The notes beneath the pieces were generated by a model. It saw nothing but the letters and a program-made list of their open reading frames with translations, searched no databases and had not been told where the DNA came from. This document shows, piece after piece, positions 8,283 through 45,309 of a DNA stretch of 64,000 bases. Made by a program: the position numbers and the translations under genes. This DNA comes from a virus, in IMG/VR virus record IMGVR_UViG_3300037137_001027, positions 64,001-128,000 of that record, one strand, 5' to 3'. Within the stretch, counting starts at the first letter, position 1. Each line of letters begins with the position of its first letter.

Positions 8283-9311
8283 ATGGACGCTGTTGAGACG
8301 ATGGGTTATGTTGGTGCGACTCCTTGGCACGGCAAGGGCAAGTCGGTTACGAATGAGGATGCCATGTACAACAGCAAGTTGTTCGTGGCGGAATGCGGTT
8401 TGAATTGGGAAGCGGAGAAGCGGCAGTTGTATCGTACCCGCGTCGGCGGTGATGGTGCATCGGTCTACGAACCCGCGTCGGCGTGGGAAGTGGTCCGCAA
8501 GAGCGATGGTCACGTTCTGGCCGACATGGTAGGCGAGCGGTATACCATTCTCCAGAACGAGGAAGCGTTCGCGTGGTTCCAGGGCTGGCTTGATGCCAAG
8601 GAAGCGGCGTTGCATACGGGCGGCGCGTTGTTCGGTGGTTCCCGCATTTGGGCGCTTGCCAAGTTGAACCGTGATCCTATGGAAATCGCTGCTGGCGATA
8701 TTGTGGAGAAGTACGTTCTTCTCTCCCATAGCCACGACGGTTCCCTTGCGGTGCGCGTCGGTTTCACCCCGATTCGCGTGGTTTGCTGGAACACGTTGAG
8801 CATGGCGAATAAGTCGGATGCTTCCAAGCTCATCCGCCTGAAGCATTCCAAGAATGTCCATCAGAACTTGGACAACTTGCGGGATGTGATGAACCTTGTC
8901 AATCAGGACTTCGAGGCGACGGCGGAACAATACCGTCTGTTGCAGCGCAAGTCCATCAATCAGAACGACTTGCGTAAGTACGTCAAGCGAGTTCTGAAGG
9001 TGGACGCGGAGGACAGCGTTATTTGGACGGGTTCGGCCCGCAGCAAGGAAATGAAGGAAGTGGTTTCCGAGCGGGAAAAGAACACTCTGGACAAAGTGAT
9101 TGGCCTTTGCGAATCGGGCAAGGGTAACAATCTACCGTCCGTGCGTGGTACTTACTGGTCCGCTTACAATGGCGTGACGGAGTATCTGAGCTACGTCAAG
9201 GGACGGAACGAAGATAACCGTCTGAACGCCTTGTGGTTCGGTACGAACGCGACGACGAACAGGGATGCGTTGTCCGTCGCGGTGGATATGGCGAGCGGCA
9301 TGGCCGTCTAA
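8283..9311 (+). CDS. DUF932 (TIGR03299-like) phage/plasmid protein
   Basis: MGYVGATPWHG, YTILQNEEAF, LSHSHDGS, TPIRVVCWNTL, GTYWSAYNGVTEY. Confidence 0.88.
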   Translation: MDAVETMGYVGATPWHGKGKSVTNEDAMYNSKLFVAECGLNWEAEKRQLYRTRVGGDGASVYEPASAWEVVRKSDGHVLADMVGERYTILQNEEAFAWFQGWLDAKEAALHTGGALFGGSRIWALAKLNRDPMEIAAGDIVEKYVLLSHSHDGSLAVRVGFTPIRVVCWNTLSMANKSDASKLIRLKHSKNVHQNLDNLRDVMNLVNQDFEATAEQYRLLQRKSINQNDLRKYVKRVLKVDAEDSVIWTGSARSKEMKEVVSEREKNTLDKVIGLCESGKGNNLPSVRGTYWSAYNGVTEYLSYVKGRNEDNRLNALWFGTNATTNRDALSVAVDMASGMAV

Positions 9312-9317
9312 GGCTAT

Positions 9318-9354
9318 AAGGAAGGGGGGAGAAATCCCCCCTTCCTCTTTTTTT
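9318..9354 (+). terminator. intrinsic terminator
   Basis: AGGAAGGGGGGA-GAAA-TCCCCCCTTCCT followed by a T-tract. Confidence 0.85.
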
Positions 9355-9390
9355 GTCTTATAGGTTTATAGAGGTTGTACTAAACCTATC

Positions 9391-9564
9391 ATGGACGAAC
9401 GGCTTTTTTGTGAATGGGAGAATGGGTCTTACGTCAATTCTCTTATGGGCGGCGACCGCTTCTTAGAGGATTTGATGGAATTGGTACGGGAGTATGGTCC
9501 ACCGATCAAGGTGGAAATCCGTGGGGCTAGTATGGTTTCGACAGCGGCCCAAGTGACAGGCTAG
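9391..9564 (+). CDS. hypothetical protein, probably leaderless; 3' end overlaps the tmRNA-like element
   Basis: ATG 9 nt after motif 9370. Confidence 0.55.
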   Translation: MDERLFCEWENGSYVNSLMGGDRFLEDLMELVREYGPPIKVEIRGASMVSTAAQVTG

Positions 9565-9659
9565 ACCGTGGTAGGTCGGACCCGAAAACATGCCTAAAAA
9601 CAAAGTAGGGTGTCTGTTAGCAAGTCGTCTGGACCTGGGTTCAATTCCCAGCTAGTCCA
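9524..9659 (+). ncRNA. Miniature tmRNA-like RNA: tRNA-like domain intact, mRNA-like domain nearly absent
   Basis: Acceptor GGGCTAG/CTAGTCC-A with G3:U70; unpaired D-loop TATGGTTTCGAC; GAC then T-arm CTGGG-TTCAATT-CCCAG; P2-like helices AGCGGC/GTCGTCT and TGACAGGC/GTCTGTTA. Confidence 0.75.
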
Positions 9660-9685
9660 ATTGAGGTTGTACTAAAGGAGGCACT

Positions 9686-9901
9686 ATGAAACACGAAGCG
9701 AGCGACTGGATTGTGTCTCACTGGATTGGCAAGAGTGTGCGGCAGGCTTGCGGTTCCGAAGACTGCGTAGGCAGGGTTGGAACGGTGGAAGAAACCATGT
9801 GGGATGAGAATGGTGCATTGCATTGCCGCATGGTGCATAATTCTGCGCACGGTATGACTTCGGAGTGGTGGTGTCCCGCACTGTTACTGGAGATAAACTA
9901 A
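9686..9901 (+). CDS. hypothetical protein
   Basis: AAGGAGG RBS behind the motif. Confidence 0.75.
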   Translation: MKHEASDWIVSHWIGKSVRQACGSEDCVGRVGTVEETMWDENGALHCRMVHNSAHGMTSEWWCPALLLEIN

Positions 9902-13185: not shown

Positions 13186-13257
13186 GCCGCCATCTTCTAG
13201 TGGCAGGATGCTAGGCTTTCAACCTGGCGACGTTGGGTTCAAATCCCACTGGCGGTA
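13186..13257 (+). tRNA. tRNA-Glu (TTC), CCA not encoded
   Basis: Acceptor GCCGCCA/TGGCGGT, D-arm with AGTGG, anticodon loop CT-TTC-AA, T-loop TTCAAAT. Confidence 0.88.
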
Positions 13258-13367
13258 CTCGGTTGCTCCCATGTACCAAGTACAAACAGCGGCTTGGGGC
13301 CGTGAGCTTGGGCTAACACTCTCCCCAAGAGGGAGGGGGCGACCGCCTAACAAGAGCAGCAACAGAA

Positions 13368-15371: not shown

Positions 15372-16472
15372 ATGAAGACCATCGACTATCTGCGAAGCGG
15401 GAAGACCCTGGATGACCTCCATACCGAACTTGGTATCGAAGTCAATCGCCATGATAGTTTACCCCTGGCAATCCTGAACTACTCTCAGATTGATTCGCCT
15501 AAGACTGATCCCATCGTGCGGGAATGCCGTGGGCTTGTCCTTAATTCTGAGGACTGGTCGCTGGTGGCGCGTGCCTTCCCCCGATTCTTCAATTGGGGAG
15601 AAGTAGCGGACGAAATGCCGCTGTTCAATTGGGATAACTCCGTTGCGCTGGAAAAGGTAGACGGTAGCTTGCTGCTGTTCTATCATTTCGCGGGCGAATG
15701 GCGTGTGAACACTCGCGGTAGTTTCGCGGGTATGGGCATGTTCAATACGCAATGGCAAGCGGATTATTTCAAGATGCCTATGTCCTTCACCTGGAAGGAT
15801 GGTATCTTGCGGGCGCTGGGTATTAAGGATTTGTCCGAATTGGACGCTTACCTTGACCCTGCCCTGTCCTACGCTTGCGAATTTTGCTCCCTATGGAACA
15901 AGGTCGTTCGGGAGTATAAGACGCCTTGCGTATACCAGCTTTCCGCGTTCGCTGGCGAAGAAGAAGTCGGGCCGCAATCCGTTCCGTTCTTCAAATCCGT
16001 TGGCCAGTATTCGCTCCGAACTGCTGATGAGGTAACGGATTACGTTAATTCGCAACCCGAAGCGACGTGGGAAGGTTGCGTTGTGAAGGATGATGCGCAC
16101 CGCCGATGGAAGATCAAGAACAAGCGTTATCTTGCCTATCATAAGATGAAGGGCAACGGCGATGCGCTTTATAATCCTTCCAACCTGTTGCCGTTCATCT
16201 TGGACGGGGAAGGCGACGAATTGCTTGCGGTCTATCCCGAAGTCAAGGAATGCTTCGATAGCTACAAGTCCAGGGTGAATAAGGCTTTCAGCGAATTGGA
16301 TGCGCTGTGGCAAGCCAATAAGGACATTGAAAACCAAAAGGAATTTGCCCTTTCGATTGTGGGCAAGTCGCCTTTCACTGGACTGTTGTTCAGCGCACGA
16401 AAGAACAAGACGCCGCTCAAGGAGGAATGGCGAAAGGCGGAAGATTACATCTTGAAAGGGTTGTTCAAGTAA
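15372..16472 (+). CDS. RNA ligase, T4 Rnl1 family
   Basis: RECRGLVL, AFPRFFN, motif I EKVDGSL, EGCVV, KIKN; leaderless start. Confidence 0.9.
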   Translation: MKTIDYLRSGKTLDDLHTELGIEVNRHDSLPLAILNYSQIDSPKTDPIVRECRGLVLNSEDWSLVARAFPRFFNWGEVADEMPLFNWDNSVALEKVDGSLLLFYHFAGEWRVNTRGSFAGMGMFNTQWQADYFKMPMSFTWKDGILRALGIKDLSELDAYLDPALSYACEFCSLWNKVVREYKTPCVYQLSAFAGEEEVGPQSVPFFKSVGQYSLRTADEVTDYVNSQPEATWEGCVVKDDAHRRWKIKNKRYLAYHKMKGNGDALYNPSNLLPFILDGEGDELLAVYPEVKECFDSYKSRVNKAFSELDALWQANKDIENQKEFALSIVGKSPFTGLLFSARKNKTPLKEEWRKAEDYILKGLFK

Positions 16473-43668: not shown

Positions 43669-45309
43669 TTACTCCTCGGTATCATCGCCATGATCTTCGT
43701 CGTGGTTGTAATGATCGTCATGATCTTCTTCTTCATGATCGTCATGATCTTCTTCTTCATGATCTTCGCCACCAGATAGGGCTTCATCTTTTGAACTAAG
43801 TCTCTTGCGGAACTTGTCGGTTTCTAGCCATTTAATTGCGTCTGAGAATTCTGAACCTTGTGGAGTACGACCACCGAAAAGTTTGGCAATTGATGGGTTA
43901 ATACTTTTCTTACCTTTTTCATCGGAAACAAAACCTTTAGTGTCAAGTTCATGATTTAGGAAGTGATGCAGAACATCTTCTGGTTGCTTGTTCATGCTGC
44001 CCCATTGTTTTACTAAACTTGGCACCATGCCAGTCTTATGAAAATTCTTCTTCATGTCGAAGAACTTATCCAAGAACAGTTTTGGATTCTTGCCATGTTC
44101 ACTCATCCATTTTGAGAATTCAATAAGTGTAACAATATCACGCACTTCGTCATCTGACCAAGCGCCCTGGTGGAGCATTTTCTCTACTTTAGCAGGTGGA
44201 TTAGCTCTTAGCAACCATGCAATTGCCAATCGCTTTTCTTTTTTATCAGAGAAGTCTTCGGCTGAGTCAAGTTTGAAAGTCATATCAGGGAACACGGTAT
44301 CTAATAGACCCATTTCCTTATACATTTTAACATATTGGACAGGATCGGTGTCTGGATGTTGTAAGCCTTTAAGGAATTCTTCTTTAATCTTTTCACGGCT
44401 AATTGATGGTAAATCTTTGATATCTTTGATAGCAGACTTAACATCGTCGCCAATCTTGGTATTTTTGCCGTGTGAAGCGACCTGGCGCACATATCTCAAT
44501 ACGCGGCCTTGATCTTCTCCAAGTCTTTCTTTCGGGTTGCCTACGAATTCAATTTCACCACGGCGCAAGTGATGTGCGCCACCGTGCGGATCGACAAGTT
44601 TAGCATTAGCCCCGTCAGCACTTGTCAAAGGAATGTACATAGCATTAACAGTAAAGTCTCTTCTGGCTGCATCGTCATCCAAAGTACCGAACTCCATGCT
44701 GTCTGGAGTCTTGCCGTCACCGCTGCCTTTGGAACCTTTTCTAAATGTGGCTATTTCGAATTCTTCTCCATTGACTCTGGCGTTAAATACATATTCTTTT
44801 CCACCACGATCCCAGCCCTTTGCGTGGAAAACCTTGTTCTTTTGTCCTGCTTCTGGATGCTTGTCATATTTGGTGGTTTGTGACTTACCATCGCCTTGTG
44901 GTTTAACTTCAGTAAATCCAGCGCTTCTCAGGATTAAACGAATTTCATCTGGTCCTGCATCCGTTACTAAATTGTAGTCTCTAGGAGTTTTGCCCAAGAG
45001 GTGGTCACGGACTGCGCCACCAGTAAGATACAATCCCTTCTTCTTTAGACGTGGGGAGGTTTCACCTTTTGCTGGGTCAATGGTGGTTAACTTTTGCGGA
45101 TAACCGTCAGGACCAGGCAGGGAAACCTTATCACTATCTAAGAAAGCTTTAGCAATAACCCTTAAATTAGGGTGATTTTCACCATCAATAACAAATGGCT
45201 TGAAGTCTGTATCATCAGCCAGTTTGACTTCTGAAGATGCCTTCTTAGCTTCTGTATTCTCTTTCAATCCAACAAATTCTAAAAATGTTTTTCTCATATA
45301 CCTGCTCAC
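43669..45309 (-). CDS. CCA-adding enzyme / poly(A) polymerase-family nucleotidyltransferase
   Basis: LTGGAVRDHLLG, PRDYNLVT, EIATFR, DAARRDFTVNAM, EDQGRVLR, ISREKIKEEF. Confidence 0.85.
   Translation of the reverse strand: MSRYMRKTFLEFVGLKENTEAKKASSEVKLADDTDFKPFVIDGENHPNLRVIAKAFLDSDKVSLPGPDGYPQKLTTIDPAKGETSPRLKKKGLYLTGGAVRDHLLGKTPRDYNLVTDAGPDEIRLILRSAGFTEVKPQGDGKSQTTKYDKHPEAGQKNKVFHAKGWDRGGKEYVFNARVNGEEFEIATFRKGSKGSGDGKTPDSMEFGTLDDDAARRDFTVNAMYIPLTSADGANAKLVDPHGGAHHLRRGEIEFVGNPKERLGEDQGRVLRYVRQVASHGKNTKIGDDVKSAIKDIKDLPSISREKIKEEFLKGLQHPDTDPVQYVKMYKEMGLLDTVFPDMTFKLDSAEDFSDKKEKRLAIAWLLRANPPAKVEKMLHQGAWSDDEVRDIVTLIEFSKWMSEHGKNPKLFLDKFFDMKKNFHKTGMVPSLVKQWGSMNKQPEDVLHHFLNHELDTKGFVSDEKGKKSINPSIAKLFGGRTPQGSEFSDAIKWLETDKFRKRLSSKDEALSGGEDHEEEDHDDHEEEDHDDHYNHDEDHGDDTEE
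43711..43758 (-). repeat. 24-bp tandem repeat encoding EEEDHDDH twice
   Basis: ATGATCGTCATGATCTTCTTCTTC x2. Confidence 0.85.

Follow-up and report, generated by a model that had tools for sequence, protein, structure and literature searches.

A conserved phage gene for a miniature tmRNA with nearly no mRNA domain

The DNA analysed here is a 64,000-nt stretch (the window), positions 64,001 to 128,000 of the IMG/VR virus record IMGVR_UViG_3300037137_001027. The record is 159.5 kb long, has an estimated completeness of 79% by CheckV, and encodes T4-type baseplate genes and an Rnl1-type RNA ligase, as identified with Pfam and PHROG. Downstream of a gene for a DUF932 protein (8283–9311; Pfam PF06067, E 4e-48), positions 9524–9659 of the window are a real, conserved phage gene for a miniature transfer-messenger RNA (tmRNA), with an alanine-identity tRNA-like domain (TLD) and nearly no mRNA domain. 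A first-pass annotation, made from the letters of the sequence, had proposed a 136-nt RNA of this kind, and the limits of the Rfam match agree with the coordinates it gave. The Rfam tmRNA model (RF00023) matched the window with 50.4 bits (gathering score 47; E 6.3e-17), and a scan of the whole record gave the same match. The alignment extends over 9524–9662 and covers the model from end to end (positions 1–374), but with 256 central model positions deleted. The comparison with tmRNA models that the annotation had suggested came out divided, however: Rfam placed the element above its gathering score, whereas ARAGORN was silent at 9524–9659, its sole call in the window being a tRNA-Glu elsewhere.

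All the TLD features expected from the first reading were present, including the acceptor GGGCUAG/CUAGUCC, the G3:U70 wobble, the A discriminator, the stemless D-loop and the T-arm (Table 1). The UUCGAC that ends the D-loop occupies 9537–9542. There is no anticodon arm, and its place is taken by a 90-nt P2 domain. The long P2 helix of tmRNA is present in two parts, P2a and P2b, which are shorter than the ≈30 paired positions of the Rfam model and enclose 50 nt, in agreement with the two P2-like helices that had been proposed to close a segment of about that size. Pseudoknots PK1–PK4 are absent, the 256 missing central positions of RF00023 being those of the deletion. Of the two small hairpins predicted within the enclosed segment, only H1 is a hairpin; H2 consists of 4 bp that close an A-rich loop of 24 nt. 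This loop reads GAAAACAU GCC UAAAAACAAAGUA and contains a conserved UGCC (GCC at 9592–9594), a UAA at 9595–9597 and AAGUAG at 9603–9608; the letters AAA CAU GCC UAA, to which attention had been drawn, are found at 9586–9597. The element was not recognized as a tRNA-Ala: ARAGORN called no tRNA there, and tmRNA was the only Rfam match reported, overlapping matches of the same clan having been collapsed to the best one. With the same treatment of overlaps, the all-family scan gave no match to the mitochondrial tmRNA family (RF02544) at its gathering threshold.

Table 1. Features of the mini-tmRNA gene and its surroundings, in window coordinates.
Feature	Position	Strand	Remarks
Terminator-like hairpin and T-run ending the DUF932 gene	9319..9356	+	12-bp G+C-rich stem; L007 also has a hairpin after the gene
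Promoter-like motif GAGGTTGTACTAAA	9371..9384	+	≈140 nt upstream of the RNA; presumed to drive transcription of the precursor
5' leader of the presumed precursor	9391..9523	+	Similarity to L007 lost here
Mini-tmRNA gene	9524..9659	+	136 nt up to the discriminator; CCA not encoded; Rfam RF00023; own covariance model R1, 153 bits
P1 acceptor stem, 5' strand	9524..9530	+	Pairs with 9652–9658; G9526:U9656 is G3:U70
Stemless D-loop, tmRNA signature GGUUUCGA(C)	9531..9541	+	GGUUUCGAC kept in at least 90% of 18 relatives; aligns to the Rfam-consensus UUCGAC
P2a, 5' strand	9542..9548	+	7 bp with 9624–9631; U9628 bulged
Internal loop between P2a and P2b	CCAAG on 5' side; GCAA 9620..9623 on 3' side	+	GCAA in 15 of 18 aligned relatives
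P2b, 5' strand	9554..9561	+	8 bp with 9612–9619
Hairpin H1, GACC / GUGGUA / GGUC	9564..9577	+	Stem varies among close relatives, but at least 90% of them keep the hexaloop GUGG(U/A)A
H2, 4-bp stem ACCC/GGGU with 24-nt A-rich loop	9580..9611	+	Strands 9580–9583 / 9608–9611
GGAC	9631..9634	+	GGA kept in at least 90% of relatives
T-arm, CUGGG / UUCAAUU / CCCAG	9635–9651	+	Stem 9635–9639 / 9647–9651; GGGUUC.A.UCCC kept in at least 90%
P1 3' strand CUAGUCC and discriminator A9659	9652..9659	+	Followed by AUU, not CCA
Next promoter-like motif GAGGTTGTACTAAA	9663..9676	+	Followed by an AGGAGG ribosome-binding site and an open reading frame at 9686–9901
Nucleotidyltransferase, CCA-adding / poly(A) polymerase family	43669..45309	−	Pfam PolyA_pol, 83 bits, plus RNA-binding domain

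Searches with the upstream DUF932 protein retrieved related huge-phage contigs of 129–390 kb. In L007 and L008, which have identical matches, and in L010, an Rfam tmRNA match of 139–140 nt lies 3' of the DUF932 gene. A pattern scan of IMG/VR yielded a second clade (clade B: L002–L006), in which the elements are 138–140 nt long, encode the CCA and score 64–70 bits. The same type of Rfam match (48–70 bits, 138–140 nt) was present in eight related viral loci, and a metagenome scan added 36 further members. Elements of 131–140 nt thus occur at the same locus in related huge phages and on dozens of other viral and metagenomic contigs. Two contigs with DUF932 homologues, L009 and L011, had no mini-tmRNA within 4 kb, and the 390-kb L009 record had none above the cut-off. 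ARAGORN called no tmRNA for any mini element at 10 related loci. A scan of genome contigs also returned matches in Nitrospinota and others, which were ordinary full-length tmRNAs caught through their internal GGTTTCGAC, and were set aside as irrelevant. None of 50,697 cultured-phage records matched the locus in a blastn search, so that neither a cultured relative nor a host was identified. When the locus was compared to L007, nucleotide similarity was lost after the DUF932 terminator, returned exactly at G1 (9524) and stopped at the discriminator, A136, with divergent flanks on both sides.

Two sets of sequences, one of 17 viral members and one of the 18 closest members (131–137 nt), were aligned with a covariance model built on clade A. 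The proportion of paired cells was 95.5% in the viral set and 95.9% in the 18-member set, as opposed to 29–48% in controls with slid partners; these percentages are inflated by the fitting of the alignments to the model structure. In both sets, 29 of the 37 pairs had changed on both sides, and none of 500 shuffles of the 18-member set reached any of the observed measures. Every helix was supported by such changes among the 18 members: P1 in 4 of 7 pairs, P2a in 6 of 7, P2b in 9 of 9, H1 in 4 of 5, H2 in 4 of 4 and the T-arm in 2 of 5. The compensatory changes in P1 fall in pairs 4–7, and those in the T-arm are in the two outer pairs of the stem, while G3:U70 is found in all 18 members. In the nearest relative, L283, the acceptor stem and T-arm are identical to those in the window, but P2a, P2b and H2 differ by compensatory changes. 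An unfitted MAFFT alignment already contained compensatory changes in P1, P2a and the T-arm, and independent constrained folds gave the same architecture in each lineage. Outside the helices, at least 90% of the 18 relatives keep GGUUUCGAC, the GUGG.A of the H1 loop, the GC of (U)GCC, GGA and the T-loop. The same-length, covarying homologs that the annotation had asked to be sought are therefore found in related phages. We also considered a PK1-like or kissing interaction between GGUA of the H1 loop and UGCC. Its geometry is plausible, but there was no compensatory change, the pairing is broken in L302 and L303, and the H1 loops of clade B (GUAAU, AACAA, AGC) have no partner.

The absence of 256 model positions and the silence of ARAGORN might be taken to mean that the element is the decaying remnant of a full-length tmRNA or an artefact of assembly. 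In that case, relatives might be expected to carry a full-length tmRNA at this locus, as the first-pass annotation had pointed out; the relatives that have the element carry a mini form of the same length there, not a full-length tmRNA. Same-length copies exist in many independent assemblies, all the helices covary, the boundaries of conservation are sharp, and some relatives have dedicated promoters. Since elements of the same length are found at the same locus and show covariation, the gene is not a deletion remnant. At the level of sequence comparison, the remnant or artefact reading is effectively refuted, and we give it next to no weight.

A related 341-kb record (G005) contains a full-length tmRNA in addition to the mini form. 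This gene, which ARAGORN did call, is 357 nt long, scores 120 bits, encodes the tag ATPYEYALAA and lies 284 kb from the mini copy. The acceptor stem, D-loop and T-stem sequences differ between the two. With such unrelated TLD sequences, the mini-tmRNA is kept as a separate gene and did not arise recently by deletion from the full-length tmRNA of the phage. The full-length gene (L345 8558–8914, minus strand, on G005:C1) sits amid divergent DnaE, PrkA, YhbH and SpoVR-like genes, and a gene with an RF-1 domain is found at G005:C1:79542–79853. IMG/VR labels G005 a provirus, and the tmRNA-bearing end may be either phage or host DNA.

It had also been proposed that the RNA might add a very short tag, read from GCC UAA. 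GCC (or GCG) follows an A-rich run in nearly all members of the 114–138-nt forms, and in some relatives it opens a short frame that ends in a stop codon: ASTQVA in L007, ASIQVA in L010, and ASIKVAC, AYIKVAC, ASIK and ALAKFF in others. In the window, L324 and L040, the frame consists of a single alanine before the stop. However, the stop after GCC is not conserved, as L283, the nearest relative, has UCA instead and no in-frame stop, and the GCC frame is likewise without a stop up to the 3' end in L310, L304, L276, L302 and L272. Stops located before the P2a 3' strand were present in the GCC frame of 11 of 30 members, compared to 18 and 20 of 30 for the other two frames. The H2 loop ranges from 21 to 24 nt among close relatives, with indels of 1–3 nt, and the conserved AAGUAG is in frame 0, +1 or +2 relative to GCC, depending on the member. 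Because the stop is not conserved, the loop has indels and stops are not enriched in the GCC frame, the tag frame is not a conserved feature, and the proposal that GCC UAA is a selected very short tag was not supported. We conclude from these comparisons that the family has what looks like a conserved resume signal, but no conserved tag message, and that the GCC UAA of the window is best treated as lineage-specific and possibly fortuitous. Two other frames were considered. An alternative resume codon just past AAGUA (GCG UAG, GCG UGU UGA and similar) was not conserved, and the window has GGG there with no nearby stop. In clade B, a frame starting GCA AAU ACG (ANTAGLTE or ANTVGMFK before the stop) was promising in two lineages, but the GCA is lost in L297 and L295.

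These data bear on whether the RNA could be a complete minimal tagger, in which GCC would serve as resume codon and UAA as stop, and a full cycle would add Ala-Ala before release by RF1 or RF2. The succession of an A-rich stretch and GCC is conserved across clades and resembles the sequence upstream of canonical resume codons. In the tmRNA of E. coli, there is an A at position −4 relative to the resume codon; the window has an A at this position as well, and continues GCC UAA A. The stop-terminated frames of some relatives fit such a function, and natural two-residue Ala-Ala tags have been reported in bacteria, for example in Fermentibacterota (PMC11915505). The bacterial messages are comparably short, and GCC UAA would give a similar Ala-Ala C-terminus; those RNAs are, however, the cells' own tmRNAs, with tags identified by the authors, as that paper describes, whereas the stop in the mini form is not conserved. 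A working tag is also difficult to reconcile with a stop that is missing even from L283, with indels and frame shifts of AAGUAG in the loop, and with GCC-frame stops that are rarer than those in the other frames. Moreover, H2 and P2b close off the loop in which the supposed message lies, and a pseudoknot ring is lacking. We therefore consider a complete tagging cycle improbable.

The expression signals around the gene are of several kinds. The motif ≈140 nt upstream (Table 1) has a related counterpart, TTGTACCA, at a similar distance in L007. As the first-pass annotation had noted, the element adjoins the next promoter motif, which begins 4 nt past the discriminator; a motif of this type follows the element by 4–11 nt in L007, L010, L279, L269 and L310. 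The window has 64 copies of GAGGTTGTACTAAW with two mismatches or fewer, where 0.4 would be expected, and all but one (63) are on the plus strand. The copies are spread over 22–31174 and look like a dense series of phage promoters ahead of small genes, with the variant (C/T)TGTACCAA in relatives. Some relatives have promoters directly upstream of the element, consisting of the phage motif in L279 and L283 and a TATAAT box in L002. In L005 (10824–10860, minus strand), a perfect sigma-70 consensus, TTGACA-17-TATAAT, ends 6 nt before G1 of the clade B mini-tmRNA, which predicts strong transcription by the host RNA polymerase from the mature 5' end. In the window, an open reading frame of 57 codons (9391–9564) that lacks a Shine–Dalgarno sequence begins at the usual distance from the upstream promoter motif and overlaps the RNA gene by 41 nt. 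Neither Pfam nor PHROG gave a match for it, and it has no conserved counterpart in L007, where no reading frame crosses the 5' end; it was therefore not counted among the parts of the element. A cut by RNase P at 9524 would remove the stop codon from the mRNA for this reading frame and turn that mRNA into a non-stop substrate in its own right.

Neither this record nor any of four related ones, three of them at least 98% complete by the CheckV estimate, yielded an SmpB gene, and the RNA must therefore use the SmpB of the host. A search for a Pth gene in this record and three related ones was also negative. The record does encode a nucleotidyltransferase of the CCA-adding / poly(A) polymerase family (Table 1), with PcnB and CCA tRNA nucleotidyltransferase as its best NCBIfam matches, all below the curated (equivalog) cut-offs. 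A second gene of the PolyA_pol / CCA-adding family is located at G000:C1:62886–63263 of the phage, and homologues are present in three related huge-phage records. Matches below the cut-offs are compatible with either CCA-adding or poly(A) activity for these enzymes. The product of 43669–45309 is a candidate for CCA addition to the mini-tmRNA and to the phage tRNA-Glu (UUC), which is located at 13186–13258 and does not encode its CCA, the discriminator A being followed by CUC. The same accessory region encodes a T4 Rnl1-type RNA ligase (15372–16472; Pfam RNA_lig_T4_1, PHROG 562), a hint of tRNA repair in infected cells.

This setting raises the question of whether the RNA might act outside trans-translation, as a decoy for a host anti-phage RNase or tRNA-targeting defence, as a primer or packaging signal, or as an attP-type fragment of a tmRNA integration site. 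The accessory region is rich in small unknown genes, and the nearby tRNA gene and RNA ligase hint at a traffic of RNA damage and repair. Yet the invariant features of the element (G3:U70, A73, UUCGAC and GGAC) are precisely the set recognized by alanyl-tRNA synthetase (AlaRS) and SmpB. Unlike in att fragments, both halves of the TLD are present, and the structural genes resemble those of T4-like lytic phages. A role of this kind is thus very unlikely.

The closest described object to the 136-nt RNA is the TLD-only tmRNA of Mycobacterium phage DS6A, a precedent that the first reading had missed, although its comparison with the mRNA-less tmRNAs of mitochondria was apt. The DS6A RNA was reported to inhibit tmRNA strongly when expressed in E. 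coli (Mao et al. 2009, as cited in PMC4131195 and PMC11915505). We located this element at JN698994 28478–28557 (L349 179–258), where its 80 nt fall between gp33 and gp34, in a stretch without annotation; its score on the Rfam tmRNA model, 43.2 bits, is below the gathering score of 47. Both RNAs are phage-borne, have an intact alanine-identity TLD without an anticodon arm, and lack a tag frame and a pseudoknot ring. Both match the Rfam model end to end with the centre deleted, and the closing loop of the DS6A RNA also holds an A-rich run, of the CGAAAAC type. However, the DS6A element consists of the TLD, a 5-bp P2 stub and a 20-nt loop, while the 136-nt RNA has 56 additional nucleotides that make up P2b, H1 and H2. 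Only the latter has a two-part P2, conserved loop motifs and a three-way junction with H1 and H2 that is supported by covariation, and there is no obvious shared sequence beyond the TLD signatures.

Like the standard one-piece tmRNA (SsrA, RF00023), the mini form has G3:U70, A73, UUCGAC, GGAC with the T-arm, a P2 helix and an A-rich stretch followed by GCN. It differs in being ≈220 nt shorter, in having no PK1–PK4, no P5 and no conserved tag frame or stop, in escaping detection by ARAGORN, and in its location in a phage record where an SmpB gene was not found. Organellar tmRNAs without a coding sequence are known from jakobid and other mitochondria (RF02544), and forms of ≈65 nt occur in plastids of Mallomonadaceae (PMC11915505). 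They, too, have kept the TLD and lost the message, are retained alongside SmpB and are thought to help in rescue without tagging, but most are encoded as permuted two-piece genes, and the P2-H1-H2 domain is missing from them. In the 2025 tmRNA database, there are only nine "standard, no CDS" (coding sequence) entries and 79 phage sequences (PMC11915505). In the literature searched, we found no description of a ≈135-nt form and a single phage tmRNA without a message, the 80-nt RNA of DS6A; the ≈135-nt phage form thus looks undescribed so far.

Three pattern scans of IMG/VR, filtered for at least six of seven acceptor pairs, gave at least 107 unique elements. Among the matches listed, G3:U70 was present in 103 of 107 and the discriminator A in 106 of 107. 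The size distribution has its main peak at 77–81 nt (at least 87 elements, loci L062–L175 and others) and a separate scatter at 99–137 nt.

The 136-nt RNA might be a pure decoy that soaks up the SmpB of the host, and perhaps its AlaRS and EF-Tu, and shuts down host trans-translation; the inner domain would then serve only for stability, and the loop would not be decoded. The inhibition reported for DS6A (PMC4131195) and the lack of a conserved tag frame in the mini family are in keeping with this. TLD-only forms of 77–81 nt are also the commonest phage type (87 of 107 among the IMG/VR matches listed), and a bare TLD must therefore suffice for some selected function. On the other hand, a sponge would need neither the compensatory upkeep of P2a, P2b, H1 and H2 nor the GUGG(U/A)A and (U)GCC loops, and in G005 an inhibitor would inactivate the full-length tmRNA, with its canonical ...YALAA tag, as well. 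We regard a pure decoy as a possible, though rather doubtful, explanation.

P2, H1, H2 and the A-rich-GCC loop are under selection and are absent from the TLD-only forms, which argues for ribosome engagement. The conservation of this domain, with its resume-like loop, suggests that the RNA really engages ribosomes, rather than sponging SmpB. We thus favour, with a probability of about 0.6, a tag-less competitor or rescuer: an alanine-chargeable mimic, dependent on host SmpB, that would divert stalled ribosomes from the tag-and-degrade pathway. The precursor would be transcribed from the promoter-like motif ≈140 nt upstream. Since the motif is this far from the RNA, the leader would need to be removed, presumably by a cut of RNase P at G9524, by analogy with the precursors of tRNA and tmRNA. 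Once the 3' end had been trimmed back to A9659, CCA would be added, possibly by the CCA-adding-type enzyme that the phage itself encodes. The mature RNA, now 139 nt, would be charged with alanine by host AlaRS through G3:U70 and A73, and would bind host SmpB via the intact elbow formed by the D-loop, GGAC and the T-arm. Delivery by EF-Tu to the empty A site of ribosomes stalled on broken mRNAs would then place it in competition with the full-length tmRNA of the host. Because there is no conserved tag reading frame, the nascent chain would gain only alanine and not a proteolysis tag, or, in this phage, possibly Ala-Ala, by way of GCC followed by UAA. The least certain step is the release, which might take place at a chance stop codon or through drop-off and hydrolysis.

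Several observations weigh against a tag-less competitor or rescuer. The GCC frame is open to the 3' end in 17 of 30 members, and a complete rescue cycle is not assured. If the mini form antagonises trans-translation, its presence in G005 sits uneasily with the full-length phage tmRNA there. In the window, 140 nt separate the promoter motif from the RNA, and an unconserved reading frame overlaps the 5' end. With the record ≈79% complete, an SmpB gene or a full-length tmRNA could be located in the missing part. Finally, the fitted alignments overstate the extent of pairing, as described above.

A stronger form of the proposal is that the ≈135-nt minis are a distinct, working class of ribosome-rescue RNAs, in which the TLD, a short P2, H1 and the A-rich-GCC loop suffice, with host SmpB, to set the resume codon and free the ribosome without adding a degron. 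We put this forward only tentatively. If correct, these would be the smallest natural trans-translating RNAs, and a phage device that shields truncated proteins from ssrA-tag proteolysis while ribosomes are recycled during infection. More generally, if the RNAs do engage ribosomes, they would define a minimal tmRNA for rescue and reveal a phage strategy directed at host translation quality control; if sponging of SmpB is all they do, they would be natural inhibitors of trans-translation. Surveys of phage tmRNAs depend on ARAGORN (PMC7162821, PMC9004378), and since this program reported none of the mini elements tested, the gene type is probably systematically unannotated. IMG/VR alone holds at least 107 unique phage-borne candidates, compared to the single case of DS6A in the literature searched, and that set includes a discrete ≈135-nt class in which purifying selection clearly acts on a structured domain and on a signal that resembles a resume signal.

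Minis of 136–155 nt were also found in binned contigs, at L329 2263–2398, L337 3369–3509, L341 2222–2376 and L332 2507–2649. Three of the bins are Saccharibacteria and one is Burkholderiaceae. In two of the Saccharibacteria genomes there is a full-length tmRNA as well, and in the third the mini, located on a contig with rRNA genes, was the only match above the cut-off. L332 retains a textbook PK1 but no message. In addition, a 373-kb relative has a second tmRNA-like element of 127 nt (L347 101–227, G007:C1:24758–24884), with G3:U70, a discriminator A, a T-arm and a degenerate D-loop, UUUGAUGAC, which scores 29 bits on the Rfam model, below the cut-off.

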